Below are positions 119 to 45,918 of a stretch of DNA of 52,582 nt, one piece after another. The position numbers and the translations under genes are program-made. Origin of the DNA: Chitinivibrionales bacterium (GTDB lineage: Bacteria > Fibrobacterota > Chitinivibrionia > Chitinivibrionales > JANQEN01); NCBI GenBank assembly GCA_028278335.1, contig JANQEN010000126.1:1-52582 (forward strand), read 5' to 3'. Within the stretch, counting starts at the first letter, position 1, and the number at the start of each line of letters is the position of its first letter. The notes below the pieces were generated by a model, which saw only the letters and a list, made by a program, of their open reading frames with translations, did not search any database and was not told the origin of the DNA.

Positions 119-132
119 CAATTTGGTTAAGC

Positions 133-17660: not shown

Positions 17661-17662
17661 CT

Positions 17663-18553
17663 ATGATCACACAGCTATCCAAATGGCAAAACATGACATG
17701 GGCAATTGTTTTTTTATTCCTTTTTGGAGCCCCACTATCCATCAATGCAACCAAGCCACCCTTTGATACCCTCTCCGGGCCATTACCCAAGACTATTGCT
17801 GCGCAAGGGCGCCCCTATCTTATTGTCTCTGACATTGAGGTCCCCTTTGGCAAAAAGGTTACCATAGAGCCCGGCGTTGTATTCATGTTTCAAAATTTTA
17901 CCGGTTTTCATGTAGAAGGTCAACTCATTGCCGAAGGCACCAAAAGTAGACCTATTGTGTTCACCTCGGAATTCGATGGTATTTACAATCCCGACACAAC
18001 CCTCATTGCCAACCCCTTTGATTGGAATGGCATTTATATCCATAAGGATGCCTTTGGCTCACAGATAAAATTCGCAAAAATCATGTATTCGGTTTATGGA
18101 ATAAAATCAGATACTCGACTTATAAGAATTGATCCCTGTATTTTTGGCAATAATGGCAAAGGACACCTGGCCATTGCCGACTCTACCCACACAATTCTAG
18201 AGAATAAACCCTACACCTATGTATTATCAAAACGAGACGCTACTATCGAGGGTGTTCCTATAAAATTGATTTCCGATCCTCTTGCACGAAAACGAAACTT
18301 CTTTCGCTATGCTAGCATTACTCTATTGGTGGGAGGCATCAGCGCCGGTATTATTGGCTACGAACGGTACAAAGATTCTCAGGACAAATTTAACACTTTG
18401 AGTACAGATGATCAAACCATGCTCAATCAGCACTCCACTGAGGACTGGGACAAAGCTCGAACTGATAAATATTTGGATTTTACCCTCCTCTGTGCTGGTA
18501 TATCGGCAAGTGTGTTGGGTACAACCGGTTTTGTCTGGACCTTTACCTTTTGA
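17663..18553 (+). CDS. Hypothetical secreted/membrane-anchored protein (signal peptide, C-terminal two TM helices).
   Basis: 296 aa. Start 3 nt after the kinase stop (likely co-transcribed). No recognizable catalytic motifs. Confidence 0.5.
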   Translation: MITQLSKWQNMTWAIVFLFLFGAPLSINATKPPFDTLSGPLPKTIAAQGRPYLIVSDIEVPFGKKVTIEPGVVFMFQNFTGFHVEGQLIAEGTKSRPIVFTSEFDGIYNPDTTLIANPFDWNGIYIHKDAFGSQIKFAKIMYSVYGIKSDTRLIRIDPCIFGNNGKGHLAIADSTHTILENKPYTYVLSKRDATIEGVPIKLISDPLARKRNFFRYASITLLVGGISAGIIGYERYKDSQDKFNTLSTDDQTMLNQHSTEDWDKARTDKYLDFTLLCAGISASVLGTTGFVWTFTF

Positions 18554-18565
18554 TCTCAAGAAAGG

Positions 18566-21496
18566 ATGGGCACTATGAAACACTCCTTTTTCATCATACT
18601 TTTTGCAGCACTGCTTTGGCTCTTCTGCTCCGAATATAATCCCTTTGAAAATCCCGCCAATATCAACGTGGTGGTGGTAGCTGAAAAAAGCTCTTTACAG
18701 AGAGATAGTGCAACCAACATATTTACAACAGAGACCCTCACGGTTATTGCCACTGTCCGCGAAAAGATCGACTCCTTTACTATTCATGCTCCTACTAATC
18801 GATATTGGACCAAGCAGACCATCACCGCACCCATTGCCGATGGTGAGTACATCTTTCTCTTTTCCTATAACGACAGTGGTAGTGCAACGGTACTACTCAA
18901 CACCTACCGCAATAATGGCGATATCATTCCTCAGGAATTTTCTTTAAAGATCAACAATCCCCTTGCGCAATCACCGATCACCATAGAGCAGGGCACCGAT
19001 TTTGTCCTCTCCACACCAGCAGTAAGTGATTTTGATACCCGCTACCATTGGAAATTCTTCAAAGAGAGTGGTCAACCGCTCACCTTCTCCAATGCAACAA
19101 GTAACTATACAGCCCAGATCAACGAACCACTCTCCGGTGATACTGGCTATCTTTGGGTGGAGGACACTGCAGGTAATACCTCTCCCCTCACCCCCTTTAC
19201 CTATAGCACGATCGACACAACCGGTCCGGTCATTCTCTGTCTGAACAAGGGGCCAATTGGCGACACACTGATTTCTGGTGCGGGCACCTTTGTCTTTAAG
19301 GTAGAGTGTAATGATGGCCAAGGGATTGGTGGCGCCCTGATCAACAACGAGAACTTTTCTGACTCAACCCTTAACATCAAGGCAACGACCTATTACAAAA
19401 CACTCTTTAATTTAGACACCCTAAGCGGCTACTTTTTAGTTGCGGTCAATGCCTGGGACGCCAAAAACAACCACCGCAGGGACACCTTTTTTATTCGTTA
19501 TGACAGCAATGGCCCTAAAGAAATTATTACCCTAAAGAATCCACCAACAAGTTATTACACAACAAACCAAAACCCCTTTACTATTGTTGCCACAGTATTC
19601 AATCCCCTTGACACATCGGTCACTGTAACAATTCACCACCGGGAATATGATTCTACCCACCTCATTGACACCATAGTAAAAGAGACCGAGCAGGACATCT
19701 CCTTTGCTACTTCTCTGCAACAGGGAACCAACACACTGTTTATCAATGTATTAGACACCTCCAACAGCGTCATTGCCAAAGACAGCGTCTTTCTCACCTT
19801 TACTTCCGGCACCATCGTGGATTCAATCCCTCCCTTTATCAACCGTATAACGGTCAATGGGAAAGAGGGTAGACAACATTTTCTCCCGGAGAACTATGCT
19901 GTCCTGGCCTTAGAAGCCTTTGATGAACAAATGGATAGTGTGCTCATAAACAACACCCTTAAATCCGCAGAACCGGGTCACCGTTTTCTTTGGAAAGACA
20001 CCCTGGCACTCAACGACAGCACACAATTCTTCTACATCCACCTCATTGACAAAATGGGTAATAGAACCTTCGACACGGTCGAGGTACAACGAAATAATTT
20101 ACCCAAAATCACCACACCGGTTTCATGGCCCCGAACGCTAGTGGTGGGTCGTCCCTGGTACAAGGAGTTCAATGTTGCCGATCCCAACCGTGATCTCGTT
20201 TCAATCATTCACTATCCTGATCCAAAAAGCGCTCTACCGGAACCCGGTGCCATCACCTTCTCCCAGATAGGCCCAAACCGGTGGTCCGTGTTTTGGCGGG
20301 GTCAACTCAGTAATAGTAGTGGACTTAACAAATTGCATAAGACCTTTGTTGTGCTTTATGATGAGAAGGAGTATATGCCCTATCCCTGGAACTTCTCTAT
20401 CAAAGATTCGACCCAGGCACAGGATTATCACTTTCAAGTATTTTTACCCGATGGCATCGACTCTACCGCTCTTGGGGCCATTGACATAAGCACAGCAACT
20501 GAGCCAGTCAATGTCTTCTGTATTGTTGTTGCCGATGCAAAACCATTCTCTGATCGCGACATCATTACGGTGCTCCGTGAAGACCAGGCAATAAGCTTTC
20601 CTGCAACCGCTTCCGATACCAACTGGTTCCACCTCTCCCTCGTTCCCGAAGAGATCAAGGGCAATAAAGAATCAATGCTTATCATGGTGACCGACAGCAA
20701 TGATGTGGCCACCCTGGTTGACACATTGGTTGTGATTTATTCATGGGATTTTCCTGGTCATATTGATGAATTGGGCTGGCTTCTCAATGCAGATGAGGGC
20801 ATCACCCTCAAGGAAGACTTCGTTGCGCATTGGGAAACAGAGGCCTTTGAATTGAATACCAATTCCTATACAAACGAACTGTATGATCGGAAAACCATGC
20901 CCCGCTATGTTGAAAACGCTATTAGCGATTACGCAGCACTAAAGTTCTCGCCCCTGGAACATTCTAATCTACTCAATAGCGAGGAGAATTGGCTGAGCAC
21001 TCCCTTTACCCTCTTTTTTGTGACTCGCCTTGCATTGACGACCCCAAAGGATAGTGGCAAGGTAATCATCTCTGCTGGCCCGGATAATAAATTTATTGGT
21101 CTGGGTGTGTTCGATGGATTGATGGGCATCTATGGGTCCTTGGGAAATGGAGGATATCGTGACACAACCATCACCTGCAATATTAAGGTTACCAAAAACG
21201 CCTGGCATATCCTCTGCTATTCCTCAAAACAGGGAATGGGTAACGGCTCAACACCCTTTGATCTATCCTTCTGGATTGATGGTGAGGCTCACCCCAACAA
21301 CACTATTAGCCTTCCTAATGCTGGTGGTCAAGGTAATATGAACTATCTTATTCTTGGTGGTGGCGGCAAACACACTGCTCTAAAAAACTGGGATGGTCAC
21401 ATTGCCGAGATCGTTAAATATTGTAAGTACCTTACTGATGAAGAGCGCCTTGCAGTGCAGCGGTATCTTGGCTCTAAGTTTAAAATTAAATTGTAA
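18566..21496 (+). CDS. Large secreted protein (976 aa) with repeated beta-rich (Ig-like) modules and a C-terminal ConA/LamG-like jellyroll-type domain.
   Basis: N-terminal signal peptide (LLWLFC, possible lipoprotein). Low-complexity Thr/Asn-rich beta modules. C-terminal ~200 aa resemble a laminin-G/concanavalin-like lectin fold (WDGHIAEIVKY...). Confidence 0.5.
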   Translation: MGTMKHSFFIILFAALLWLFCSEYNPFENPANINVVVVAEKSSLQRDSATNIFTTETLTVIATVREKIDSFTIHAPTNRYWTKQTITAPIADGEYIFLFSYNDSGSATVLLNTYRNNGDIIPQEFSLKINNPLAQSPITIEQGTDFVLSTPAVSDFDTRYHWKFFKESGQPLTFSNATSNYTAQINEPLSGDTGYLWVEDTAGNTSPLTPFTYSTIDTTGPVILCLNKGPIGDTLISGAGTFVFKVECNDGQGIGGALINNENFSDSTLNIKATTYYKTLFNLDTLSGYFLVAVNAWDAKNNHRRDTFFIRYDSNGPKEIITLKNPPTSYYTTNQNPFTIVATVFNPLDTSVTVTIHHREYDSTHLIDTIVKETEQDISFATSLQQGTNTLFINVLDTSNSVIAKDSVFLTFTSGTIVDSIPPFINRITVNGKEGRQHFLPENYAVLALEAFDEQMDSVLINNTLKSAEPGHRFLWKDTLALNDSTQFFYIHLIDKMGNRTFDTVEVQRNNLPKITTPVSWPRTLVVGRPWYKEFNVADPNRDLVSIIHYPDPKSALPEPGAITFSQIGPNRWSVFWRGQLSNSSGLNKLHKTFVVLYDEKEYMPYPWNFSIKDSTQAQDYHFQVFLPDGIDSTALGAIDISTATEPVNVFCIVVADAKPFSDRDIITVLREDQAISFPATASDTNWFHLSLVPEEIKGNKESMLIMVTDSNDVATLVDTLVVIYSWDFPGHIDELGWLLNADEGITLKEDFVAHWETEAFELNTNSYTNELYDRKTMPRYVENAISDYAALKFSPLEHSNLLNSEENWLSTPFTLFFVTRLALTTPKDSGKVIISAGPDNKFIGLGVFDGLMGIYGSLGNGGYRDTTITCNIKVTKNAWHILCYSSKQGMGNGSTPFDLSFWIDGEAHPNNTISLPNAGGQGNMNYLILGGGGKHTALKNWDGHIAEIVKYCKYLTDEERLAVQRYLGSKFKIKL

Positions 21497-21841
21497 AGGC
21501 TTTGCTGATTTTTATTTAGGCGCCTACTCAGTGACTTAATTGAAAGAGTTTTAAAAGCATATGGGAGTTGTCCTCATTTTAGTGTTATGATTCAGATTGT
21601 TTGGGCGTCTTTTCAATTCATACATCTGTCATTTAAAAAATTTATTTGGGCGATCCTTCGCTTAAGCTCAGGCCGGGCCTGCTCCAGGCTCCGCTATCGC
21701 TTCGGTATTTTGGCTTGGCCAAAACACTGCTCTGCACCTTCCGCGTCCCTATCGCAAAAGATTAAAAGATTGATGAAGGTCTAACAGTATTGGTCATTGC
21801 GATCTATTACCTCTTTATAAATGCTATTGAGTTGCTTTTTA

Positions 21842-22096
21842 CCCCTTCAATCGCACCGCCGAATGGTTCAGAAAAACGCGAGGTGCTGTTTCACGGATAC
21901 CTTCCTGGTACCCGCCCCTTGGGCATCACTTCGTGATGTGCTCTCCGACCATCCCTGGTCTCCGAGTGAGTCTGCCCAGCAGAAGAGTTCAGCGAGCGTC
22001 TGAACCTGAGGCGAACAGGGCGATTGCGGGGTGTGTTTCGTTCATGTTTGCCATCCCTGGCAAACACCCTACGGGCTGTGCCTTCGGCACAGTGCT
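21842..22096 (+). repeat. GC-rich structured repeat element, copy A (candidate ncRNA / cis-regulatory RNA). It carries a ~90-nt insertion relative to copy B.
   Basis: 5' 30 nt (ccccttcaatcgcaccgccgaatggttcag) and 3' ~95 nt (gacctgaggcga...gcgattgcggggtgtgtttcgttcatgtttgccatccctggcaaacaccctacgggctgtgccttcggcacagtgct) are near-identical to the reverse complement of 33819-33990. Contains hairpins tgtttgcca/tggcaaaca and ctgtgcc-UUCG-ggcacag. The 5' end can pair with gcgattgcgggg. Confidence 0.6.
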
Positions 22097-22368
22097 CTCT
22101 AGCCATCCTGGCTTACGAGTGCTTACTTTTTTTTGCTGCAGACCGGGCAAAAATTACAATAGAAACAATGCCGCCAGGCATTGAACTACCTTACCCAGCA
22201 GAACGGTAGTGACAATAAAGGTGAGGCGCCTGCCAGTGCGCGAACTGGCGATCTTCAATGTTTTTTGTTTTTCCTGTCATCGCGAGCGCAGCGACGCGAT
22301 CTCGTAATCTATATATACATCGGGATTGCCGTGCCACACGTCTAATGACATGAACCATTTTAAGAATT

Positions 22369-23178
22369 ATGAAGTCAAATCACATATCAATATTATTAAC
22401 TCTTTTAATTGGATGCCTCGTCAGCTCTTCTTTTGGTTGCTCACTCTTTGCTCACGTTTCCAAGGATAGTGTTATTGTTGGACGTAATTTTGACTGGCAT
22501 ACAACCGGTGGCACCATCTGGTTTATACCAAATTCCTCAAAGGGATTTGGGCGCATGACCATAACCCAACTTGGAATAAAGATGCCCTATGAAGGATTAA
22601 ATGAACAGGGTCTGTTTGTTGGTCAAGCAATGGTTAGAGACACCCGCAATAGACCTAACATCTTTCATAAACGAGTTCGTGCACCAGCATTGATTGACAA
22701 AATCCTTCGTAAGTGTAAAACTGTTGAAGAGGCAATCAAACTGGCGTCTCGAAGGCGTATTCTTTTTGGTCGATCATTGGGCTATCCCCACATACACTAT
22801 TTCTTTGTGGATGCCTCAGGTGCTTCAGCAGTGCTAGAAATCTTTGATGGTAAATTGTATATATTTCACCGTACCGGAAACAACCAAATTGTATCAAATA
22901 ATTATTGGGCGGAAAATAGAGAACTCTGTCCACGTTACCAAATCGCTGATAGCCTGTTTGCAAAAAATAACACACCCTCAACACTCTTTTCTATCAAGGT
23001 ACTGGAAAAAATTTCACAATCTATGACAGTATGGTCAAATGTTTATAACCTTAAAAAGCTTAAAGTATATCTTCGCACTGACTCTGATTTCTCCCGTATC
23101 AAGGCATTGAAACTGAATGATGAATTATCTAAAGGGCTTCACTCCTATAACTTTAAAACATGGGTTCTTGAGGATTGA
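22369..23178 (+). CDS. Secreted Ntn-hydrolase of the choloylglycine hydrolase / penicillin V acylase (linear amide C-N hydrolase) family.
   Basis: 269 aa. Signal peptide ending ...SFG followed by the nucleophile Cys (CSLFA). GRNFDWH motif typical of the CBAH family. Confidence 0.6.
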   Translation: MKSNHISILLTLLIGCLVSSSFGCSLFAHVSKDSVIVGRNFDWHTTGGTIWFIPNSSKGFGRMTITQLGIKMPYEGLNEQGLFVGQAMVRDTRNRPNIFHKRVRAPALIDKILRKCKTVEEAIKLASRRRILFGRSLGYPHIHYFFVDASGASAVLEIFDGKLYIFHRTGNNQIVSNNYWAENRELCPRYQIADSLFAKNNTPSTLFSIKVLEKISQSMTVWSNVYNLKKLKVYLRTDSDFSRIKALKLNDELSKGLHSYNFKTWVLED

Positions 23179-23467
23179 CTGGAAGAGAATTGATTACTGA
23201 ATAGTTTACATTCTGCAACCATTTTCTGTAAAGAGTCGCAATCGTGCAACGCCCCCGTTAAATCAACAGAGTGCCAACTAATGTTATAACCTAATAAATA
23301 ACATGCCCTTACGCGCCAAACGGCACTTTTGGCATACCATTTGTTTTAATTTATGGTTAAAACTGTCCAACATAGATAACAAATATTGGATACAGAGCAC
23401 CATACCACAATGGTTTGGTGATGTTGTTTAACTATTAACCTAAAACAAATTTTAAAGGAGTCTCTTT

Positions 23468-24229
23468 ATGACTAAAAGTCCTGAAGAACACTACAACGAG
23501 GAGCTTGCTACTATCATGGCAATCCCCGATGACAAGCACGCCCATTTAAACATGCCACCAGAAGTTGCCATGCAGGAGGGTAAACGTGTTGCTGCCCTTT
23601 CAGTAAAGTACAAGTCCGAGCTTTCTGAGACAGAGATTGATCCAGCACTTCTTGACTCAGTAGAAGCGCGCGCCGAAGCCTATGCCTATAGTGTGGCAGC
23701 CTGTGATATCTATCAATCCGCAGGTCCAGCACTAAAGGAAAAGTACCAGGAAGCCAAAAGAAAGGCCTATGCCTTACGAACCAAACTGCTTAAGAGTCTG
23801 GAATATCTCTTTCGCCAAGACCCAAACACATTGGAGCGTATTGCAGTTATACGATCAGGCAAAGGTGATGGGGACCTGCACAAGGATATGCTCTCCTGCC
23901 ATAAGCTCTGCAAAGAAAAAGAGGAATTTTTGGCTGCCACCAATTTTGATATGGCCCTGGCTCAACAGGCAGTTGCTCTTTGGGAAGAGATGGCACACCT
24001 TGACTCAGAAGCAGACATCAATCCTGAAAGAGTAAACGAGGCTAAGCGGATTTGTGCTAAAGCTTGGACCTATTTACATGAAGCCTTGGACGAGATTTAT
24101 GCTGCTGGGCGGTATCGATTCATGGATGAACCAGAGGTTGAAGAACTGTTCTACCGCGACTATATTCAAGAGTTGCGGAAAAGATCAGCCAAGAATAATA
24201 CAGCCGAAGAAGCATCTGTGACCCCGTAA
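23468..24229 (+). CDS. Hypothetical all-alpha cytoplasmic protein.
   Basis: 253 aa, RBS-like ggag upstream. No recognizable family. Confidence 0.5.
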   Translation: MTKSPEEHYNEELATIMAIPDDKHAHLNMPPEVAMQEGKRVAALSVKYKSELSETEIDPALLDSVEARAEAYAYSVAACDIYQSAGPALKEKYQEAKRKAYALRTKLLKSLEYLFRQDPNTLERIAVIRSGKGDGDLHKDMLSCHKLCKEKEEFLAATNFDMALAQQAVALWEEMAHLDSEADINPERVNEAKRICAKAWTYLHEALDEIYAAGRYRFMDEPEVEELFYRDYIQELRKRSAKNNTAEEASVTP

Positions 24230-24313
24230 AGCGATTTTAATACTCTTGTGATGATCTATGCTGGGTGTCTCCTTGGGGAGGCACCCTTTTTTTATCAATC
24301 TAATATAACAAAC

Positions 24314-24562
24314 TTAATGCCTTTATAAACAATAGCCTAAAGTTTAGAAGACTATGCCTAAATGATATGTAAGGGGGCGTAATGTTTATGAAATAGGGCC
24401 TAATGTTTATAGGACTAGGCGTAATTATTGATCAGGGGGGTCGTAATTTAGATATGAGGGGGGCTTAATTTCGATGACACCGGGCATATATTCGTTATGA
24501 GGGGCCCTAAATTTATTCACATGGGGCTTAATGTTTGTGAAGAGGCGAATATTATTTGGTTT
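24314..24562. repeat. Degenerate tandem array (~12 units of 17-24 bp) with consensus GGGG(C)CNTAAT(G)TTTAT.
   Basis: Units start at ~24373, 24396, 24418, 24435, 24458, 24482, 24501, 24523, 24544 (gggggcgtaatgtttatg, gggcctaatgtttatagg, ggggggtcgtaatttagat, ...). In the convergent intergenic region at the edge of the AT-rich islet. Confidence 0.6.
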
Positions 24563-24571
24563 GTTGTTAAT

Positions 24572-25837
24572 TCACGCTCCTTGACTTATTATTACCTTTT
24601 CTAATCTTTTCTTTTTAACTTGGGGGAACTTAAATGATAGCTCCTTAATTCCCATTTTTTTGGTTTTTCTGCCTTCTCTTATTTTCTCAGATATATTGAG
24701 AGCCTGACTTTCTAACTTATCACAATACTCAAAAACTTCTTTTGTCATATCATTAGAGAGTTCTGGCATCTTTTCAAGCAAACGCTTTTCTCTATCAATA
24801 CTTTTTTCTGGATCAAGTGGTTGAGCAATACTAATAGCTAAATCAACTATTTTTGCGTTTAATTTTACAAATTGTCTCTCTTTTTCCCATTCTTTGTACA
24901 ATTCTTGGTTTTTTAAATAGTCTATTACTGGATACGTTATAGGTATCATCAAACCTAACCAAAGAAGAAAGAATATGGCTGAGGCAACAAGCATTCCATC
25001 AAGGATGATCCCTTTATATGAACCTGTAGGTTTTTTTAATTCCGCAAACTTGGCAGCAATATATTTCCATTTTGAATTATGTAACGGATAAACTATTAGA
25101 GTGTCGTTCTTTTTAAATTTCCTTGGACTGTTATTATTAAAACTCCATCCAACGGTTGCCTTTGAGCTATCAGGCAAATATCCATGAATACGATATTGGA
25201 AAGTAAAGGGCAACCGTTTATCAATTTTAGATATCGCCTGGACAGAAAAAATACCCGGTGAATTCCAGTCAATATTTTTATGCTTGTTAAGGTTTGACAG
25301 ACCCCAAATTGCAAACAATACAGAGAGTCCCAAAATTATATACATACCACTTCTGAAAGTCGATGAAATAAGAATCTTCACATAAAAGCAAACTTTACCA
25401 AATATCGACTTGGAGATTTTTTTCTCATCCTCTGACTCCGTACTGCCTGAAGTAATTAAGGATATGGTTTGTACAAGCACAAAAAAATAGAAGACATAAA
25501 AGTCATTGAACCTACGGTAAATAAAGTGGAAATAAAAACTGATAATAATTGAAATTCCCAACATATACCATTCTATAGCGATTTCGCTCATCTGTTTCTT
25601 TAGTCTCGCCCTTCGCTTTTTCAAGAATATCAGGGTATATATTACAGTAATTAGCCACGTATCTGCAAAAGCTCCAGCAAAAAAGAAGAAATATCTCCGT
25701 CCCCAAAAAAATAAACCCGCAACGAAAAGAGCAAACAATACCACGGCGAACCTATCTTCCTTTGATGCCCCTTTCCATTTGTTAGTAATTGCTAAAATTG
25801 GATTTATATTTCGCATCCTTCTTTCCTTGATGACCAT
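24572..25837 (-). CDS. Hypothetical polytopic membrane protein with a long C-terminal cytoplasmic coiled-coil tail.
   Basis: 421 aa. 4-5 N-terminal TM helices, a central soluble beta-rich segment, an additional TM, Lys/Glu-rich helical C-terminus. AT-rich codon usage distinct from neighbours. Confidence 0.5.
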   Translation of the reverse strand: MVIKERRMRNINPILAITNKWKGASKEDRFAVVLFALFVAGLFFWGRRYFFFFAGAFADTWLITVIYTLIFLKKRRARLKKQMSEIAIEWYMLGISIIISFYFHFIYRRFNDFYVFYFFVLVQTISLITSGSTESEDEKKISKSIFGKVCFYVKILISSTFRSGMYIILGLSVLFAIWGLSNLNKHKNIDWNSPGIFSVQAISKIDKRLPFTFQYRIHGYLPDSSKATVGWSFNNNSPRKFKKNDTLIVYPLHNSKWKYIAAKFAELKKPTGSYKGIILDGMLVASAIFFLLWLGLMIPITYPVIDYLKNQELYKEWEKERQFVKLNAKIVDLAISIAQPLDPEKSIDREKRLLEKMPELSNDMTKEVFEYCDKLESQALNISEKIREGRKTKKMGIKELSFKFPQVKKKRLEKVIISQGA

Positions 25838-25859
25838 GATTGACAGGTCTTTATTATGA

Positions 25860-26414
25860 TTAAAAAGTAGTCATACCCACAAACGTAATAGCATGAAGCA
25901 AGAATATGTAACAGATCACAAATAGCAAAATATTTATTCGCTTTTTCGGCAATTGTGAATTGTCGACTTCCTTTTTCCCATTTTTGATGAATTGGTCCCT
26001 AATTCCCGGAAAAACAAATTCAGAAAAAAATAAACCATAAAGTATTGTTAATAATGCTACGGCAATGTTTGGTCCCAATGACTCTATATCACTCATATTC
26101 CCCAACATGAGAACCAAAACAATTAGTGTCCAAATTATTCCACCAGCTAAAGAATAATTTGAAGCTGAAGTAAAATATTGAATTAAAAAATTCCTCTCAT
26201 CATCTCTCAAATCATCTTTTGGGGCAAATATTTTTGAAAAGGAATAAGAAATATTTTTAAAGCCATATGAATAAATGAGCCCACAGATTACAGCACCAAG
26301 CACAACAACAATTGATGGAGGGTCGATAAAATCTAAAACACGATCAGGCCCTACTGCTAAAAGTATTATTCCAAAAAATAAAAGTAATCCGATTATTCTC
26401 ATTTGATTCTCCAA
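25860..26414 (-). CDS. Small MotA/TolQ/ExbB-family-like proton-channel protein (orphan).
   Basis: 184 aa, 3-4 TM. C-terminal TM segment LGPNIAVALLTILYGLFFSEFVFP matches the MotA/ExbB signature (G..[IM]AVAL.TT.YG....P). No MotB/ExbD/TolR-like partner adjacent. Confidence 0.45.
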   Translation of the reverse strand: MENQMRIIGLLLFFGIILLAVGPDRVLDFIDPPSIVVVLGAVICGLIYSYGFKNISYSFSKIFAPKDDLRDDERNFLIQYFTSASNYSLAGGIIWTLIVLVLMLGNMSDIESLGPNIAVALLTILYGLFFSEFVFPGIRDQFIKNGKKEVDNSQLPKKRINILLFVICYIFLLHAITFVGMTTF

Positions 26415-26654
26415 GTTTTAATAACTATAAATTAAAAAGGAAATGCATCCCAAAAATCCTCAAGTATATCTTTCCATTTTCTGTTGAATATCAATGAAAA
26501 CACTACATAAATAATAAAAGGTATAAGAAGAATAAGAATCATTATCATTTTGATGTTGACCTATAAGCAATCACGACAATAATCACCTATGAAAATTTAC
26601 TGTTAATAATCAGAAAGAGTATTTGAATTAATTCCATTTTCTTTTCTACCAATT

Positions 26655-27557
26655 CTAATGGTAAATCCATGTAAAGTCTGCAATACTTGAGCAGTTATCA
26701 AAGAACATCACGTAACCATCCTGAACATATCGTGACACAAAAAATATGATCTCACTTTGGCCATCACCGTCATAATCTCCTGCATCAACTAAGGAAGCAC
26801 TTGATTCGTCATCATCGCCAAATTCATCTAATTCGTACTTTTTATCCATCAATTTAGTAAGATTGCATATGAAACCGTCATTAGACACATAAAACCAAGC
26901 GCTTGTTCTACGATGGGTGGCCAATTGTATTAAGGCATCATTCTTGTTCGAACAATATGACTTCATCGCCTCAACTTTACCAGTGATACTCCTTCTTCCT
27001 TTAGTATTCCAGTATAGAGGTATGAGAGAATCTACCAAATGTTTTGGTGGGATGAACGGTTTCCATCGTTCAGGGTCTTTACAGTTATCTTTAGAAACAA
27101 CAATCAGAGGGCGTGGATATTGCCCTCCCGGTTCTCCTGCAAACTCAGATGTTGGTTTTCCTACTGTTGGAAGGTTCTTCTGAACTGGCAAATGATGTGC
27201 ATCCCGAGGGAATGTCCACGAGTAGTTTTTCCATCTGAGTGGTTCCATTTTAGATGAAAAATGACCAAGTTTTCTTCCGTCGAATGCAATATACCATTTA
27301 GATGACTTCGGGTACATTTGCTGTTTTACCACACTATCGCACATTGAAATCCAACGATCTCCACTCTTCATGAACAAGACACGTACAATTTTTTTCGTTG
27401 ATAAATTTCCTTCATTTCTGTACTCAGTGTCTGGCCAACGACTAAATTTTGTTTCAAGGGTACCGACGAATATTGTGTCATTTTCTGCAAAAGAAAAACG
27501 AAGTAATATGAACAGAATTGCGAAGGCTAGTGCTACATTTAAGAAGGGATGATTCAT
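26655..27557 (-). CDS. Hypothetical secreted protein with a C-terminal FG-GAP/VCBS-like Asp-rich calcium-binding motif.
   Basis: 300 aa. Signal peptide. Motif DAGDYDGDGQSEIIF near the C-terminus. Confidence 0.45.
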   Translation of the reverse strand: MNHPFLNVALAFAILFILLRFSFAENDTIFVGTLETKFSRWPDTEYRNEGNLSTKKIVRVLFMKSGDRWISMCDSVVKQQMYPKSSKWYIAFDGRKLGHFSSKMEPLRWKNYSWTFPRDAHHLPVQKNLPTVGKPTSEFAGEPGGQYPRPLIVVSKDNCKDPERWKPFIPPKHLVDSLIPLYWNTKGRRSITGKVEAMKSYCSNKNDALIQLATHRRTSAWFYVSNDGFICNLTKLMDKKYELDEFGDDDESSASLVDAGDYDGDGQSEIIFFVSRYVQDGYVMFFDNCSSIADFTWIYH

Positions 27558-27699
27558 TATTTATTCTTTCACCATAGTATTTTCGAGAGTTAAATGTTTT
27601 TTAAAGGGTGTCCATCTATTGCGTAACAATGCACAGTTACGCTTGTGTACTGCAAACTGTTACAAATAAGCATTTTCCTTTTAGCTAAGCTATACATAA

Positions 27700-27942
27700 T
27701 CAATTTTTATGAAAGTGAAAATACCAATAAATAAATGCACTGAGATAACCAATAAGAACTAATGATTCAAATATTGTAAAAAATAGTTTGAATGCATTTT
27801 TATAGGCATCTGGTGACCACTCATCGTTCATTGCTTTGTTTTCAACCGTTTCATCAGCCTGCTTTTTTGCTGCATAGCAAGCTGCCATCGACATTACAAT
27901 AAACTTGACGATTAATCCAATTAGAATGGTGTTTGAATCCAT
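27700..27942 (-). CDS. Small two-TM membrane protein.
   Basis: 80 aa, two hydrophobic helices. Uncertain. Confidence 0.3.
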   Translation of the reverse strand: MDSNTILIGLIVKFIVMSMAACYAAKKQADETVENKAMNDEWSPDAYKNAFKLFFTIFESLVLIGYLSAFIYWYFHFHKN

Positions 27943-28204
27943 CTGTTTATTCTTTTTCTACACTATTACATAAATCATTGTGGTAGTATATTTCACACAA
28001 CAAATCATTACATAGTCAAAGGTCACAAAATTACTTTTTATAGATTATGAATTCCAATTATAGTTTGTATATTAAACCTTTGTAATCTATAATGCAAATT
28101 TAAAAATCGCATTGACTCAATAACAATTCCAAATCAAAGATGACGTCCTGAATATAATGAAAATATATAAAAGGTTTGGTTTTGGAAATTGTGTTGGAAA
28201 ATAA

Positions 28205-28675
28205 TATTGAAGTTAGCCCAGAGGGCTTAGACATACCAGCCTGGGCCAGCGGCCCAGGTGTATAGATCATCATAAATCCCTTCAGCCTGAAGGGCTGAGA
28301 CAATATAGGAAAAGTAAAGTTCGCCCTCGTCGAGGACGTTGGGTTTGTTATTATCTCAATCCCCAGGCTCCTTCGTCGCCTGGGGCTATTCAAGGTTATA
28401 CCCCTTCGGGGATAAAAAGTTTGAAGTGTAAAGTGCCTAAAGTGAGCTAAAGTTTGAAAATCTGAAGAGTGTTTTAAAGTTATGGATTTTATCGCTGCGC
28501 TGCGCTCGCAATGACAATTGCGGTTCAATTCTTTTTTATGAATCTTTTAATATTTTGGGTTAGCCAGGCGGCGGGTGGCCGCAGGCCAGTCTGAGCAACG
28601 CGAAGACCGACCAGAGGGCAGCCCAGAGCCACGGCGACCTGAACGGAGTGAAGGAACCCCCATATATTTTTTTTT
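28205..28675. other. Cluster of at least 8 short GC-rich perfect hairpins in AT-rich DNA (candidate structured ncRNA(s) or REP-like elements), upstream of rtcB.
   Basis: Hairpins cctgggcc-agc-ggcccagg, ccttca-gcc-tgaagg, ccctcg-tc-gaggac, ccccaggc-(9)-gcctgggg, cccc-ttcg-gggg, gcggc-gggtg-gccgc and others. No credible ORF. Confidence 0.5.
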
Positions 28676-28989
28676 AATGACGATTTAAAGATTAAAACAT
28701 TATATGGGATTCGCTGGTCAGCAGAAAATGCAATCGCACAAGCAGCACCCCAGTATTTATCAAAAGACGATAGATTGCCGCGCTACGCTCGCAATAACAA
28801 ATAAAGAAGTTCTCAATAATATGTTTCGATCAAGTCGCCCAATCAACAAAAACATTCCAGATAAAAATCCCTTTATTCCACAGTAACTAAATGATATTTT
28901 AGTAGATACATAGTACTATCTAAAATGAGCGATTTTATTTAGAAAAACTAGCATCATACCTATTTCTATTTTCGAAACAGCAGAATCCC

Positions 28990-30363
28990 ATGAAGTCACG
29001 GGAATTGAAAAATGTGGGAATCCCAAAGGGGCCCGCAATGAAGGCTGCCTTTGCTGCGCTTAAGCTTCTTTCTCAAAGCAATTTGGCGCAACCCTATGAT
29101 GAGCTTTTTGCAGAGGTTGTCCAAAGTCCAAAGAGGTATCTCAACCATCCTATACTGGCAAAACTTGCAGAGCTGCTTGCTGAAGCACCGCTAAAGGAAC
29201 AAAGAGCGGTTGGGCGAGCCACACCGGCTCCCATGCAAATCTGGGGAGAGGATTTTGAGCCAGAGGCCATAAACCAACTGACCCGAGCCTGCCATTTACC
29301 GGTGTCGGTTCGGGGAGCATTGATGCCTGATGCTCATGTGGGATACGGATTGCCCATTGGTGGGGTGCTTGCAACAGAGAATGCGGTTATCCCCTATGCG
29401 GTGGGCGTTGATATTGCCTGTCGCATGAAAATGACGATTTTGGATCTTCCCCTGTCTGCCTTGAGCACTGAGCTTGCCCGGTTGAAGCAGGTGCTCAATA
29501 GAGAGACGAGCTTTGGTGTTGGCGCAGAGTTTTCCCGGCGAAAGCATCACCGGGTTATGGATAGGAAATGGAACAATTCACCGGTCACTAAAAAGCTAAA
29601 GGACAAAGCCTGGGCTCAGTTGGGTACCAGTGGAAGTGGGAACCATTTTGTTGAGTTTGGAGTGCTTACCGTTTTAGAGGATCAATTTTTACTCAAGCCG
29701 GGAACCTATTTTGCGCTGCTGAGCCACAGTGGTAGCCGCGGTGTGGGTAATGAGGTTGCTACCTATTATAGTAAAATAGCCAGGACCACTAATCCCACGC
29801 TTCCCAGAGAATCTGCCCATCTGGCTTGGCTTGATTTAGACTCTCAGATTGGTCAGGAGTACTGGCAGGCCATGACCTTAATGGGTCACTATGCAGCAGC
29901 AAATCATGAGTGTATTCATTCGGCCATACACCATGCTCTTGGTGCTGAAGTTCTATTAGATTTAGAGAACCATCACAACTTTGCCTGGAAAGAGCGCTAT
30001 AACGGAAGTGATGTGATTGTCCATCGTAAAGGAGCAACTCCTGCAGCCACGGGCGTCTATGGGATCATCCCTGGATCAATGGCTACTCCCGGCTATGTAG
30101 TACGTGGGTTGGGCAACGAGGATTCGCTCAATTCCGCCTCCCATGGAGCAGGAAGAAAAATGAGTAGGCAGGCTGCTAAAAGATGTTTTTCATGGCAAGA
30201 GGCTCAGCACTATTTAGAAAAACAGGGTGTGACAGTTATCTCTGCAGGATTAGATGAAGTACCCATGGCATACAAAGATATTGATGCGGTTATGGAAGCT
30301 CAATCGGATCTGGTGGAAACAGTGGCACGCTTTGATCCAAAGATAGTTAAAATGGCAAAATGA
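28990..30363 (+). CDS. rtcB: RNA-splicing ligase RtcB (3'-phosphate / 2',3'-cyclic phosphate RNA ligase).
   Basis: 457 aa. MPDAHVGYG, GVDIACRM, SGSGNHFVEFG, HRKGAT and HGAGR motifs diagnostic of RtcB. Confidence 0.85.
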   Translation: MKSRELKNVGIPKGPAMKAAFAALKLLSQSNLAQPYDELFAEVVQSPKRYLNHPILAKLAELLAEAPLKEQRAVGRATPAPMQIWGEDFEPEAINQLTRACHLPVSVRGALMPDAHVGYGLPIGGVLATENAVIPYAVGVDIACRMKMTILDLPLSALSTELARLKQVLNRETSFGVGAEFSRRKHHRVMDRKWNNSPVTKKLKDKAWAQLGTSGSGNHFVEFGVLTVLEDQFLLKPGTYFALLSHSGSRGVGNEVATYYSKIARTTNPTLPRESAHLAWLDLDSQIGQEYWQAMTLMGHYAAANHECIHSAIHHALGAEVLLDLENHHNFAWKERYNGSDVIVHRKGATPAATGVYGIIPGSMATPGYVVRGLGNEDSLNSASHGAGRKMSRQAAKRCFSWQEAQHYLEKQGVTVISAGLDEVPMAYKDIDAVMEAQSDLVETVARFDPKIVKMAK

Positions 30364-30468
30364 AACAGTGTCCTCTTTGTGGCAGGGATCTGAATTTTTA
30401 GAACTAATGTAGTAGCGATTTAAAACCTTTTTTATTATATTATCCACTTTGATCCTAACGAATCAACC

Positions 30469-31101
30469 GTGGAAGGTGCAATGATTACAATTATTGACTA
30501 CAAAGCAGGCAATCTGACATCGGTAAAACGGGCCTTGGATTATCTTGGTATTGAATCAATTATCACTCCTGATAAGGATGCTGTTGCTGGGGCAGAACGT
30601 ATCATCTTTCCTGGTGTGGGACACGCCAAAACCGCAATCGCGGTTTTACAGGAACGGGGACTGGATATTGCTCTTAAGGAGGCCTTTGCCAAGGGAACTC
30701 CCATAATGGGGATCTGTTTGGGTAGCCAGATTATCCTTTCTCAGTCCCAAGAGGGAGACACCAATTGTTTAGGATTGATTGAAGGAAATTGTCCAAAGTT
30801 TGTTTTAGAGGACCCTTCCCTAAAAATTCCGCACATGGGGTGGAATGTAGTCACGGTAACCCGCGATCACTATATACTAAAAGATGTAAAGTCCGGTGAT
30901 GAATTCTATTTTGTTCACTCCTTCTATCCTTTACCAGCAGAGGAGAGTGCCGTATTTGCACACTCTGATTATGAGGTAACCTTTCCTGCAGCCATTGGAT
31001 ATATGAACCTATTTGCAACCCAGTTTCACCCGGAAAAGAGTGGTCCCATTGGTCTTCAGATGTTGAAAAACTTTTCAGAATGGGACGGTACAGCATGCTA
31101 A
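30469..31101 (+). CDS. hisH: Imidazole glycerol phosphate synthase, glutamine amidotransferase subunit HisH (true start possibly ATG at 30481).
   Basis: 210 aa. Class I GATase with catalytic Cys in GICLGSQ and a His/Glu C-terminal motif. Followed by hisF with overlap. Confidence 0.8.
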
Positions 31102-31874
31102 GAAAACGATTGATCTCCTGCTTAGATGTACGTGACGGAAAATTGGCCAAAAGTATCAAGTTTGTCAACACCAAGGATATCGGAGATCCCGTGTCCACGG
31201 CAAAAAAATACTATGATGAAGGGCTTGACGAATTAGTATTCTACGACATTACTGCCTCCAGTGACAAACGGGACATCATGATCGATGTGGTGAGCAACGT
31301 GGCCTCGCAGGTGTTTATCCCCTTTTCCGTTGGTGGCGGATTACGTACAGTAGAAGATTGTAGCAAAGTTCTTTTAGCCGGTGCAGAAAAGGTCAATGTC
31401 AATACTGCGGCAGTAAATAATCCTGAGCTTATTTCGGAAGCCTCTAAAGCGTTTGGTGCGCAATGCGTAGTGCTTTCCATGGATGTACGTCAGGTAGTAG
31501 GAACAAAGGATATTCCTTCGGGATATGAGATTGTGATAAATGGTGGTAGAACACCAATGGGTCTTGATGCGATTGCCTGGGCAAAACAGGGCGAAGATTT
31601 GGGTGCAGGAGAATTAGTGGTTAATTCGATTGATGCTGATGGTACCAAGGAGGGTTACGAGTTAAACCTTACTCGGACCATTGCAGAGGCGGTAAACATT
31701 CCGGTCATTGCCTCTGGTGGGGGTGGCAAACCAGAGCATCTCTATGATGTACTTACCGAAGGTAAAGCAGATGCAGCACTGATTGCCTCAATTCTTCACT
31801 ATGGTGAGTACTCGATTAAGGAGATTAAGGAGTATCTTATTGGACGGGGTATTCCTATGCGCATGATCTATTAA
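31080..31874 (+). CDS. hisF: Imidazole glycerol phosphate synthase cyclase subunit HisF (true start possibly ATG at 31095).
   Basis: 264 aa. (beta/alpha)8 HisA/HisF family: CLDVRDGK...VKG and two Gly-rich phosphate-binding segments (GGGL, SGGGG). Confidence 0.85.
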
Positions 31875-31883
31875 GGTGCATGC

Positions 31884-32576
31884 TCAAGTAAAGAGTCTGA
31901 ATATAAAGGATGTTATGTCGTCAACTAGGGAGGACTCCATGTTGGTGTATGTAAAGCTGTCTGCCCGTCCCTCTTGCATGGCTTTGCGATTGTAGGCTTC
32001 TTGCTCTAAACGCTTTTCCTGGACGCGGCGCTGTTGCTCCTTCTCTTTTTCAACCATTCTCTTTTTGTCTAAGATCTCACCACCAGCCTTTTTCCACTCC
32101 ACAATTCGTTTGAGCTCTCCACCGTCAACCCAAACACCATGCTTTTTGCACCGGTCAACAATGATTCCACTTCGAGCGCCAAAATTATTGCGATGCATTA
32201 ATTCGCCACACACGGGGCATTTGCGATATACAACGGTTCTTTTAGTATAATCTTGGTTGGCAGTTATCTTATTGAGTTTGCTAAAATCTACACCCGATGG
32301 TGGCGTTACGTTTTTCTCCAGATAAGCTTCAAGTTCATGACAGTCAAAAAACATACCCAGGCAGGTAGTGCATCGCTCAATAAAGAGGGTGCCATCGGAG
32401 TCAAGGTCAATGGTTTGTAACTTTGTTGTGCATTGGGGGCAGAGGCGGTCACTTTCGTGGTCAACCGGGGAACTGATATGAGCATCAGCTAGGTCGATGT
32501 CATTAAAGGTACCGCAATAGTCGCAGACATAATTGCCAATCACAAGCGGGGCCGAGCAGTTCACACAGTTTGGCAT
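31884..32576 (-). CDS. Zinc-ribbon protein with two TFIIB-type zinc-finger domains (zf-TFIIB-like), YdjG-like.
   Basis: 230 aa. N-terminal CxxC...CxxC. Two copies of CPxC...(D/E)xC...G(V/M)(W/F)xDxxEL. Lys/Glu-rich C-terminal helix. Confidence 0.6.
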   Translation of the reverse strand: MPNCVNCSAPLVIGNYVCDYCGTFNDIDLADAHISSPVDHESDRLCPQCTTKLQTIDLDSDGTLFIERCTTCLGMFFDCHELEAYLEKNVTPPSGVDFSKLNKITANQDYTKRTVVYRKCPVCGELMHRNNFGARSGIIVDRCKKHGVWVDGGELKRIVEWKKAGGEILDKKRMVEKEKEQQRRVQEKRLEQEAYNRKAMQEGRADSFTYTNMESSLVDDITSFIFRLFT

Positions 32577-32593
32577 TGGATTTCTCCTAAGGA

Positions 32594-33616
32594 CTATAGT
32601 CGATCCAGGATCTCTTTCTTTTTGGCAGCATACTCTTCCTGGGTAATGAGCTCTTCTTCGTACATCTTCTTTAATTTTGCCAGTGTAGCCATAGGGTCCG
32701 CTGTTTGATTGGAATTCTGTTGCTCCTGCGGAGCCATTGCACCGGTCATAATGTTACCGAAACCAATTCCCGCACCAATACCCATGCCCACACCAGCTCC
32801 GCCACCTTCATTCTTTGCTGCATCACGCATAGCATCAAGTTGTTGCATCTGAGTATAATCGAGCCCAACCGATTCCGCAGCATGGGCATCGGCCTTTACA
32901 TCAGCAATACGGTTGATCCTCTTCATAGTTTCTTCATCAAAACTGGTGCCCTCAATACGAAAGTCGGTAATAGTAAAGCCCACCTTGTCAAACTCAGGCT
33001 CTAACCGCTCTTGAATATCCTGGGCAATCTCCTCTCGCTTTGCATCAATGTCACCATAGGAAAACTTCTCCTCTGCAAAGTAATCGGTTAAGGGTTGGGT
33101 GATTCGATCACCCATTACTTCCCGTAATTGCCCGGCAGAATAAAAGGAAGCGCCGCCAACAACGTTGATAAAGAAGTCCTGGGGACGGGTAATGCGAACA
33201 CTGTAGTTGCCATACGCCTTTAATCCAACAGGAAAAGAGTAAACCGGGTCGATATATTTGATGGTGTTGGTGGTGCCCCATTTTTGGTCCAAGATTTTGG
33301 TCGTTCTAAAAAAGAAGATGCCCACCTGATGTTCGCTTTTAAAGGATTGCATTATTCGGCTGATGGTTGTCCAAAAGGGAATGTTTTCAGTTTCTAAATC
33401 AACAATACACTCTTCAGTAAAGATATCTTCGACCTGACCTTCGTACACAAATATACAGCCCTGCCCAGGCCCGACAATAAGTTTAGAGGCGTTCTTTATC
33501 TCATCACCGTTATCGGTCCAGCGGTAGAAGAGTTGATTTGTACCAGGATCTTCCCACTCGATAACTGAACGAAGTTGTCGTTTAATTCCTTCAAAAAGAG
33601 ACATGGCTACCTCCAA
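32594..33616 (-). CDS. SPFH/Band 7 family protein (Band_7_1, YdjI-like) with a C-terminal SHOCT domain.
   Basis: 340 aa. SPFH-like core. Gly-rich linker. C-terminal LAKLKKMYEEELITQEEYAAKKKEIL matches SHOCT. Likely co-transcribed with the downstream zinc-ribbon gene. Confidence 0.6.
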   Translation of the reverse strand: MEVAMSLFEGIKRQLRSVIEWEDPGTNQLFYRWTDNGDEIKNASKLIVGPGQGCIFVYEGQVEDIFTEECIVDLETENIPFWTTISRIMQSFKSEHQVGIFFFRTTKILDQKWGTTNTIKYIDPVYSFPVGLKAYGNYSVRITRPQDFFINVVGGASFYSAGQLREVMGDRITQPLTDYFAEEKFSYGDIDAKREEIAQDIQERLEPEFDKVGFTITDFRIEGTSFDEETMKRINRIADVKADAHAAESVGLDYTQMQQLDAMRDAAKNEGGGAGVGMGIGAGIGFGNIMTGAMAPQEQQNSNQTADPMATLAKLKKMYEEELITQEEYAAKKKEILDRL

Positions 33617-33818
33617 AAAAATATAGCACTGTTTCTGACAGAATGAATGTACGTTTTGATTATACTATTCGTGTCTATAGTAATACATAGGTTCTTTAAG
33701 AAATTAATGCTAGGAGCATTTAGGTATCTGCTCATATTGTTTTTGCTGATTGTGTAGGATGGACAAGTAAACTTAATCATTTTTGCAGTTTATTAAGATC
33801 GTCGAGATACTGCCCGAC

Positions 33819-33990
33819 AGCACTGTGTCGAAGGCGCAGCCCGTAGGGTGTTTGCCAGGATGGCAAACATGAACGAAACACACCCCGCAATCGCACTGAT
33901 CGCCTCAGGTCCAGGCACTCGTTAAACTCGGCTTCGCCTCGAACAGCCACTCGTACTATTCTGAACCATTCGGCGGTGCGATTGAAGGGG
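33819..33990 (-). repeat. GC-rich structured repeat element, copy B (inverted relative to copy A).
   Basis: Reverse complement aligns with 21842-21871 and 22000-22096 of copy A. Same hairpins (tgtttgcca-tcc-tggcaaaca). Lies ~180 nt upstream of the SPFH gene start on the minus strand. Confidence 0.6.
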
Positions 33991-34049
33991 AATAAAATCA
34001 TCATTATAGATCGATTCGTTAATAAAACTAAAAAGAAGTACACCTATTA

Positions 34050-45628: not shown

Positions 45629-45746
45629 AATTAACTTTCTTAATTGTTTTAAATTTTTACTCCACCATAGATCGTATCAATATCAAAATGATCCAATGCA
45701 AAAATACAATTCCCAGGAGGTCCTCACATATACATTTCGCTTAATT

Positions 45747-45918
45747 TTAACCCAGATTATGCAGTAGGAGTAGATACAGAAGTGCAAGATTATGATTTAG
45801 TAAGACTTGAAGGTTTTGAAGGGCATATCTACAAGGTGATATGGCCGAAAGGCCTGAAAGTCTTAATGGGCATAGGATTGTGTTTCTGCGCTATTTCCTA
45901 TTGCATAATCTGGGTTAA
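45747..45918 (+). mobile_element. Complete MITE-like element (~172 bp) with ~23-bp terminal inverted repeats TTAACCCAGATTATGCA(G/A)TAGGA.
   Basis: Left TIR 45747-45769. Right TIR 45896-45918 (reverse complement). Internal sequence repeated at 1-118 (inverted) and 52475-52582 (direct). Flanked by TTAA. Confidence 0.75.

Follow-up and report, generated by a model that had tools for sequence, protein, structure and literature searches.

A modular, hairpin-rich intergenic element in two inverted copies on a Chitinivibrionales contig

The Locus

The stretch of DNA considered here, referred to as the window, is the whole 52,582-nt contig JANQEN010000126.1 of a metagenome-assembled genome (MAG) from a Chitinivibrionales bacterium (Fibrobacterota; assembly GCA_028278335.1). 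Two of its intergenic regions each carry one copy, termed A and B, of the same non-coding, structured element. The copies are inverted relative to each other and lie 11.7 kb apart. The region belongs to the chromosomal core (rimP-nusA-infB-rbfA-nrnA-truB-ribF-pnp), and the best relatives of its PNPase are 74% identical. Matches that carry a name are Chitinivibrionales or Chitinispirillales MAGs, and the host is a divergent, Chitinivibrionales-like member of the phylum.

Copy A is located between an operon encoding a kinase, a 296-aa protein and a 976-aa protein and the gene of a lipoprotein-like Ntn-hydrolase of the CBAH/AAT type. Copy B is located between an M48 peptidase gene and a gene pair encoding an SPFH-SHOCT protein followed by a zinc-ribbon protein. 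These downstream genes are those named in the initial annotation, which was made from the sequence before the present analysis. Both copies point in the same direction as the genes that flank them on either side, and the distance from the end of the element to the downstream start codon is 235 nt for A and about 200 nt for B. The AT-rich stretch in between contains -10-like hexamers and, in the case of A, further GC-rich repeats.

The features of the two copies are given below, with bit scores from covariance models of the four-hairpin module (R1) and of the closed 5' domain (R2).

21842..22134, plus strand: copy A, whole element, comprising the closed 5' domain with its nested module, the linker, the 3' module and a U-tract (R2 127.9 bits; R1 103.5 and 85.2 bits)
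21842..21879, plus strand: copy A, 5' strands of helices P1 (CCCC/AAUCGC/CGCC), P2 (GGUUCAG) and P3 (ACGC), from fold and alignment
21889..21985, plus strand: copy A, nested module with hairpins Ha' (21894-21914), Hb' (21915-21923), Hc' (21924-21938) and Hd' (21941-21968) (R1 85.2 bits, E 6e-18)
21986..22031, plus strand: copy A, 3' strands of P3, P2 and P1, ending in GCGAUUGCGGGG (22020-22031), from fold and alignment
22032..22044, plus strand: unpaired 13-nt linker UGUGUUUCGUUCA, identical in A and B in the alignment; alternative pairing with GRCACA of hairpin Hc is possible
22045..22121, plus strand: copy A, 3' module with hairpins Ha (22045-22066, UGUUUGCCA-UCCC-UGGCAAACA), Hb (22067-22075), Hc (22076-22092) and Hd (22094-22122) (R1 103.5 bits)
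22094..22134, plus strand: copy A, intrinsic-terminator-like end formed by hairpin Hd, UUAC and U8 (22127-22134), read in the sequence and the fold
33816..33990, minus strand: copy B, whole homologous span (R2 152.6 bits)
33883..33990, minus strand: copy B, closed 5' domain (P1-P3) without a nested module; on this strand it has three G.U pairs and lacks A.C mismatches
33787..33874, minus strand: copy B, 3' module with Ha and Hb intact, two C.A mismatches in Hc, Hd unrecognisable and no U-tract (R1 79.4 bits)
33991..34013, minus strand: AT-rich 5' flank of copy B with TATAAT (34008-34003) ending 12 nt before the element; weakly similar to the flank of copy A (21819-21841, plus strand) and a putative promoter

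Two Diverged Copies of One Element

The inverted copies lie where the initial annotation had placed them. A repeat search of the window returned three collinear inverted pairs, 21836-21890/33942-33996 (85%), 21985-22056/33858-33929 (90%) and 22056-22099/33816-33859 (93%), and a core 37-mer occurs exactly twice, compared with no expected occurrence in 100 shuffles. Copy A, however, extends beyond its annotated end to 22134 by way of a fourth hairpin plus UUACUUUUUUUU, which have no counterpart in B.

Pairwise alignment of A and B gives 24 mismatches over 173 ungapped columns, or 86% identity, and a segment of 82-83 nt is found in A only. The first 32 nt of the two copies are identical, in agreement with the near-identical 5' end noted previously, and a core of 58 columns is identical except for one 1-nt indel in a hairpin loop. 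The mismatches are strongly clustered, and in none of 100,000 random placements did identical stretches of 58 and 32 columns arise (P<1e-5). This clustered identity may reflect either selection or gene conversion between the copies. An assembly artefact can be rejected, since A and B agree at just 86% of positions, their flanks are unrelated, and an independent Logan contig is exact over 22232-28260.

Among the intergenic regions of the contig, the two that bear the copies are the longest but one and the GC-richest. Their GC contents are 47.6 and 40.9%, compared with 25-38% in other intergenic regions and about 42-47% in coding sequence. Thus, the GC-richness previously ascribed to them is real relative to other intergenic DNA but not relative to genes.

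The Closed 5' Domain

Folding bears out the proposal of a closed 5' domain, formed when the start of the element pairs with a segment further inside it. In both copies, CCCC/AAUCGC/CGCC pairs with GGCG/GCGAUU/GGGG to form helix P1, so that CCCC..AAUCGC faces GCGAUU..GGGG, and GGUUCAG pairs with CUGRACC to form P2. P3 comes next, and the 3' hairpins follow beyond the closed domain.

The differences between the copies largely preserve this structure. In P3, two positions have changed on both sides (A-U to G-C and G-C to A-U) and one C-G pair has become U-G, while P2 contains a single U-A to U-G change. On the strands listed above, the pairs of the closed domain that depart from Watson-Crick geometry are all G.U, one in A and three in B, with no A.C. 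Folding z-scores on these strands are -3.6 for A and -2.5 for B, compared with -1.15 for the opposite strand of B. Based on these features and on the U8 tract that follows Hd in copy A, the listed strand is favoured, but not proven, to be the transcribed one.

The Four-Hairpin Module and Its Nested Copy

The 3' part of the element is a module of about 90 nt with four hairpins, Ha-Hd. Ha and Hd are both topped by CCA-UCC(C)-UGG, Hb is CCC-NNN-GGG, Hc has a stem of 6-7 bp with a UUC or UUCG loop, and Hd reads GUGCUCUC...CCA-UCC(C)-UGG...GAGUG. All four occurrences of the motif CCATCC(C)TGG in the window fall within the two elements (shuffle mean 0.21). Folding confirmed the UGUUUGCCA/UGGCAAACA hairpin in both copies, as initially annotated. 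The second 3' hairpin of that description proved to be perfect in A and to contain two C.A mismatches in B.

The extra segment of copy A had been regarded as an insertion of about 90 nt of the kind expected for a variable stem. It is instead 82-83 nt long in the pairwise alignment, and the region 21889-21985 aligns end to end with the 3' portion of the element itself (22040-22132 in A, 33874-33787 in B). It is a diverged duplicate, or paralog, of the 3' module. The anatomy of the element is thus a closed stem domain with zero or one nested module, an invariant 13-nt linker and a module.

Comparison of the three modules provides evidence for a conserved structure. In their alignment, 92% of the cells of 27 base pairs are paired, and 9 of the 27 pairs have changed on both sides yet remain paired, a result that none of 500 shuffles reached. 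When the partners were slid by 1-3 columns as a control, pairing fell to 28-37% and only 0-1 compensatory pairs remained. Altogether, 11 two-sided compensatory changes are distributed over the three helices of the closed domain and the four hairpins of the module, which upholds the original suggestion of a structured RNA element. Although the nested module shares only about 60% identity with the 3' module, 25 of its 27 pairs are still Watson-Crick, which shows selection on structure without recourse to other genomes. The hairpin structure is clearly under constraint.

Model R1 finds exactly three modules in the window (103.5, 85.2 and 79.4 bits), and the next best match scores 9 bits. Model R2 matches only A and B in 164 kb. 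Other GC-rich hairpins, at 21640-21724, 28201-28263 and 28554-28629, were considered as further members, but their model scores are weak (about 5-7 bits) and they were judged to be non-homologous to the module.

Ends, Flanks and Coding Status

The two copies differ at their 3' ends. A simple terminator scan missed the hairpin and U-tract that end copy A because the U-run begins 4 nt past the stem. In copy B, Hc carries its two C.A mismatches, neither a recognisable Hd nor a U-tract is present, and homology to A fades past about 33816. This copy has no terminator and does not overlap the ribosome-binding site. The two Hc substitutions in B are consistent with the linker UGUGUU pairing with GRCACA instead, and also with G.U pairs on the opposite strand. 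Consensus scans for promoters and terminators gave nothing above shuffles. No -35 element accompanies the TATAAT upstream of B, and the aligned -10 of A is poor.

The 3' end of the element is not complementary to its 5' end. Instead, the 5' end pairs internally (22020-22031 in A, 33894-33883 in B), and homology extends 70-100 nt past the closing stem. Copy B is flanked by CGATCTATAAT and CGATCTTAAT, while A has a CGATCT 42 nt upstream and the next downstream one only at 22249. CGATCT is not enriched window-wide (23 observed, about 26 expected).

The initial annotation had found no credible open reading frame (ORF) in these regions. ORFs of 83 and 88 aa do overlap the copies, but the conserved parts fall in different frames in A and B owing to the 1-nt and 82-83-nt indels. 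Because the reading frames are not conserved, a protein-coding interpretation was rejected and the element is non-coding.

Distribution

The element is absent from every collection searched. The Rfam covariance search that had been recommended earlier returned no match at gathering score over the whole window, in agreement with the annotator's inability to assign the element to a class. The families covered include riboswitches, leaders, sRNAs, ribozymes, Y-RNA-like RNAs, HEARO/omega RNAs and group II intron domains. At E<=10, the two intergenic regions and the region upstream of rtcB gave only chance matches below threshold (CRISPR-DR33, 24.6 vs 39 bits; rsmX, 13.9 vs 56 bits; snoRNAs). Two of these, to CRISPR-DR33 (gathering score 39), lie between copy A and the Ntn-hydrolase gene, at 22152-22188 on the plus strand (17.3 bits) and 22331-22367 on the minus strand (24.6 bits). 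No array is found there and the matches are most likely due to chance.

Exact-word scans were made with 19-20-mers. In GTDB species genomes, GCGATTGCGGGGTGTGTTTC has three matches, in Methylophilus and a Terriglobales MAG, which are attributed to chance because all fall within coding regions. In JGI metagenomes, TCAATCGCACCGCCGAATGG has four chance matches, and IMG/VR has none. No match was found in plasmids and phages by blastn. When the open frame of copy A was translated and compared with 1.84 billion representative proteins to detect spurious ORFs of further copies, the sole match was an unrelated tandem-repeat protein of 1516 aa.

Related Chitinivibrionales contigs totaling about 110 kb were also searched. 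Those of the nearest relatives with homologs of the 976-aa gene retain the kinase/296-aa/976-aa operon, but a different gene follows it (OTCase in two of three contexts). The element is absent downstream of the orthologous genes for proteins of 971-990 aa, where the spacers range from an overlap to about 305 nt. Three contigs of the pnp region (about 62 kb) gave no match other than a 13.8-bit chance match inside rpsO. These relatives are too diverged to display an empty site or an alternative orientation of the 11.7-kb block. Within the scope of these collections, the element appears to be lineage-restricted.

Genomic Context and Other Repeats

The operon upstream of copy A (15768-21496), which includes a Ser/Thr kinase gene, is lineage-specific and conserved in the nearest relatives. 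Neither Pfam nor NCBIfam assigns a domain to its 976-aa protein, which has only 12 homologs among 5.8 billion proteins, at no more than 54% identity. The 11.7-kb block between the copies includes hisH and hisF, both assigned at the equivalog level, and rtcB, which is 3.5-6.9 kb from the copies. A bacterial Y RNA, of the class that is linked to Rsr and RtcB and has 5' and 3' ends paired into a Ro-binding stem, is not supported: the 3' end of the element lies about 100 nt past the closing stem, the window encodes no TROVE protein and Rfam gives no match. Domain searches of the window found no integrase, transposase, RAYT or invertase, and it contains no tRNA.

The block also contains an AT-rich islet (24572-27942; 30-35% GC) of minus-strand orphan genes, whose products measure 421, 184, 300 and 80 aa. 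The 184-aa product is a MotA/ExbB-like channel fragment, and the 80-aa product resembles a lipoprotein. Except for the MotA/ExbB-like protein, none has a credible Pfam or NCBIfam assignment. PADLOC returned no match for the islet as a defence system.

GC skew is negative over 1-23.5 kb regardless of gene strand and mostly positive past 28 kb, with the sign switching at about 24000-28500. The cumulative minimum, at about 27.5-28 kb, coincides with the midpoint of the inverted copies (27,916). The switch may mark an origin, a rearrangement breakpoint or simply the AT-rich islet. An oriC near the minimum gained no support: DnaA boxes are not enriched, none occurs in 27.9-29.0 kb and neither dnaA nor dnaN is nearby.

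Several other repeats are present on the contig. An unrelated family of about 175 nt is found at 45744-45918, 1-123 (minus strand) and 52475-52580 (plus strand), with copies that are 94-96% identical and terminal inverted repeats (TTAACCCAGATTATGCA...TGCATAATCTGGGTTAA) like those of MITEs (miniature inverted-repeat transposable elements). Both contig ends stop inside a copy of this repeat, which is probably why the assembly broke there. A GC-rich palindromic repeat of 26 nt (TGTCATCGCGAGCGCAGCGACGCGAT and variants) occurs once between copy A and the Ntn-hydrolase gene (22275-22300, plus strand) and twice upstream of rtcB (28491-28517 and 28774-28800, minus strand). A 43-nt repeat, present in inverted orientation at 21735-21777 and 28535-28577 (77%), links the same two intergenic regions. 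Since the 26-nt and 43-nt repeats share spacers, several small repeat families accumulate there.

The intergenic region upstream of rtcB (27943-28989) contains a run of GC-rich hairpins (28195-28660) within AT-rich sequence, such as CCUGGGCC-AGC-GGCCCAGG, CCCUUCAGCCUGAAGGG, CCCCAGGC...GCCUGGGG and CCCCUUCGGGG. The fold z-score of 28195-28420 is -2.9, and the hairpins are non-homologous to the module (R1 at most 6.6 bits). A 142-aa ORF with a TTG start over these hairpins has no Pfam match and is probably spurious. The Logan assembly of SRR20820740 matches the window over 22232-28260 with no mismatch and breaks at both positions inside GC-rich hairpin or repeat regions, which hints that the local sequences recur elsewhere in the genome or are poorly covered.

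Interpretation

The reading that we favour, with a probability of roughly 45%, is that A and B represent, in two diverged versions, a lineage-restricted and modular intergenic repeat, rich in hairpins, which resembles BOX elements in architecture and acts at the RNA level. Its building blocks are the closed three-helix stem domain and the four-hairpin module of about 90 nt, with the module following the stem domain in both copies and, in A, occurring a second time nested within it. The element is most likely read on the strand that is co-directional with the flanking genes on both sides, and the RNA would then form a stable multi-hairpin block within or at the end of neighbouring transcripts. 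Because copy A ends in a hairpin and a U-tract, it would terminate and 3'-protect either the read-through transcript of the kinase/296-aa/976-aa operon or an RNA of its own of about 290 nt. Copy B, in which the last hairpin and the U-tract are gone and Hc is mismatched at two positions, would be read through or may be a decaying copy. The other repeat families on the contig add to the repeat-like context, and the element itself may have spread by duplication or transposition.

Several observations weigh against this reading. Only two copies are visible, so a dispersed repeat family would be an extrapolation from 52.6 kb, and the window encodes no transposase or RAYT protein. The element is GC-rich, unlike classical MITEs. 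No terminal inverted repeats were found at its true ends, and there is no clear target-site duplication, given that CGATCT(A)TAAT flanks B only. In the modules, the cells that are not Watson-Crick are mostly A.C, which favours the opposite strand or DNA there, and for this reason the strand call is not clean. Moreover, the clustered identity of the copies could stem from gene conversion between them, and the sustained pairing of the nested copy is easier to reconcile with a functional RNA than with a selfish insertion in decay. A bolder reading is an undescribed class of functional structured RNA whose working unit would be the four-hairpin module with its two conserved CCA-UCC(C)-UGG tops, duplicated within the RNA and kept by purifying selection for pairing. 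The modules would form a multivalent platform that binds either a protein or the purine-rich ribosome-binding sites of mRNAs, and the stem domain would serve as a scaffold. Such a class is conceivable, although on balance doubtful.

The main rival to the favoured reading, though less likely than not, is that the copies form a family of small trans-acting RNAs (sRNAs). Here, A would be an intact gene with an AT-rich promoter region, an RNA of about 290 nt and an intrinsic terminator, and B a variant or pseudogene. Conjecturally, the linker and the C-rich A-UCC(C)-U loops, of which A has four and B has one, would pair with purine-rich ribosome-binding sites (AGGA/GGGA) or bind a protein. Compensatory changes preserve every hairpin, including those of the nested copy, and the unpaired linker, the loops and the stem tops are conserved while the lower stems covary. 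The persistence of pairing in the nested paralog together with the invariant linker argues for function, and about a third of the genes in the window carry a GGAG/AGGA-type Shine-Dalgarno sequence that could pair with the loops. Both sRNAs with UCCC loops and sRNAs in multiple copies are documented (PMC2790875, PMC4132741). The terminator-like end of A and the TATAAT that ends 12 nt before B, within 5' flanks that are weakly similar, fit this model, but promoter scans do not exceed shuffles, the aligned -10 of A is poor, and B lacks a terminator and has a damaged Hc. In addition, no other genome or metagenome searched conserves the element. The aptamer-plus-platform layout proposed in the initial annotation fares worse. 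A riboswitch-like leader of the Ntn-hydrolase and SPFH/zinc-ribbon genes, with the closed domain as sensor and the 3' hairpins as platform, would fit the co-orientation of both copies with a downstream gene, the terminator-like hairpin of A, and an alternative helix between the linker UGUGUU and GRCACA of Hc that both copies can form and with which the Hc substitutions of B are compatible. However, both copies are equally co-oriented with their upstream genes, they end 235 and about 200 nt before the start codons, and no common pathway connects the downstream genes. B lacks both a terminator and a sequestered ribosome-binding site and hence a platform, the supposed aptamer tolerates the insertion of an entire four-hairpin module, Rfam yields no match even at E<=10, and nothing similar stands beside homologous genes in relatives. 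Regulation of this kind is very improbable.

It is also rather improbable that the element works as DNA, either as single-stranded hairpins recognised by a transposase encoded elsewhere (REP/RAYT, or PATE-like elements derived from IS200/IS605) or as an inverted recombination substrate that flips the 11.7-kb block. Both could hold together, and each is compatible with the favoured repeat acting at the RNA level. Mismatches in the modules include A.C as well as G.U, so that neither RNA strand is clearly favoured there, and other small repeats are present on the contig. The copies are inverted and share identical runs of at least 32 nt, close to the lower limit commonly cited for RecA-dependent recombination. 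The pair's midpoint at 27,916 coincides with the cumulative GC-skew minimum, and inversions symmetric about such a minimum are the best tolerated. On the other hand, no DnaA-box cluster lies near that minimum, no gene for a transposase, RAYT, integrase or invertase and no tRNA is present in the window, and hairpin-plus-tetranucleotide signatures common to both ends were not found. In place of mobile-element genes, the block carries hisH/hisF and rtcB, and the relatives are too diverged to reveal the other orientation or an empty site. A site-specific invertible segment is not supported, as no recombinase domain occurs in or beside the block. The initial suggestion that the copies are terminal repeats of an inserted block is not supported either, because the repeats are inverted rather than direct, the block contains housekeeping genes, and an integrase, a transposase and a tRNA are all missing.

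Comparison with Known Systems

If confirmed, the element would give the Fibrobacterota a new family, be it of structured intergenic elements or of small RNAs. To our knowledge, which does not stem from a systematic check, no non-coding RNAs or small repeats are known for the lineage of Chitinivibrionales-like bacteria. The nested paralog is an unusually clean internal control, and the element is a reasonable seed for covariance-model searches as further genomes of the lineage appear. Repeats of this type also have practical consequences, as they break short-read assemblies and yield spurious ORFs such as those of 83 and 88 aa found here. Moreover, the inverted pair is a potential substrate for flipping an 11.7-kb block that straddles a GC-skew switch. 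The general picture is unchanged, as structured intergenic repeats and multicopy sRNAs are already well known.

Riboswitches and other leaders in Rfam likewise have a closed multi-helix domain followed by hairpins, one of them terminator-like, upstream of a co-oriented gene. The element differs from them in having no Rfam match, a far start codon, unrelated downstream genes, no platform in B, a four-hairpin insertion in the presumed sensor and no phylogenetic distribution. The Listeria sRNAs LhrC1-5 (PMC4132741) and the Staphylococcus Rsa RNAs (PMC2790875) share with it the existence of paralogous copies, UCC(C) loops that include that of the terminator hairpin, an intergenic location and, as in A, a Rho-independent terminator. 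They are about 100 nt in length, while the element measures 175-290 nt, has one copy without a terminator, is confined to one contig, and has a promoter and expression that are predicted at most.

The REP/BIME, ERIC, Correia, RUP and SPRITE repeats and the MITEs are short, non-coding, strongly paired sequences between genes that are often clustered with other repeats, as is the element. MITEs differ from it in that no terminal inverted repeats are present at its true ends and no target-site duplication can be demonstrated. REPs are defined as imperfect palindromes of 20-40 nt which alternate in orientation, as in BIMEs, and are associated with a RAYT (TnpA_REP) gene. The element is larger and more complex than a REP, its hairpins are all in one orientation and differ in sequence, and no RAYT or transposase domain occurs within the window. 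SPRITE repeats act as terminators, and both BOX and SPRITE are co-transcribed with neighbours and are thought to terminate or stabilise transcripts (PMC3049150). SPRITEs and BIMEs can serve as terminators or 3' stabilisers, as proposed for the element. Unlike in these small intergenic repeats, compensatory pairing here persists even in a nested copy that is about 60% identical.

The closest architectural parallel is BOX of Streptococcus pneumoniae and S. suis, which has the composition A-B(n)-C, where boxB may be missing or multiple within the stem formed by the terminal modules, and is co-transcribed with its neighbours (PMC3049150). Both elements are modular, with terminal parts that pair into a long stem, and in both an internal hairpin module is optional (absent in B and present in A) and leaves the rest undisturbed. 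Both are also intergenic, with co-transcription (here predicted), spurious ORFs across them and no clear target-site duplication. The likeness is architectural only, since there is no sequence similarity. In addition, the element is GC-rich in a genome of 42% GC, belongs to a host of the phylum Fibrobacterota, carries the same module also outside the stem, 3' of it, and was seen in two copies, compared with more than 100 per pneumococcal genome. Overall, the kind of element is known and the family is new.

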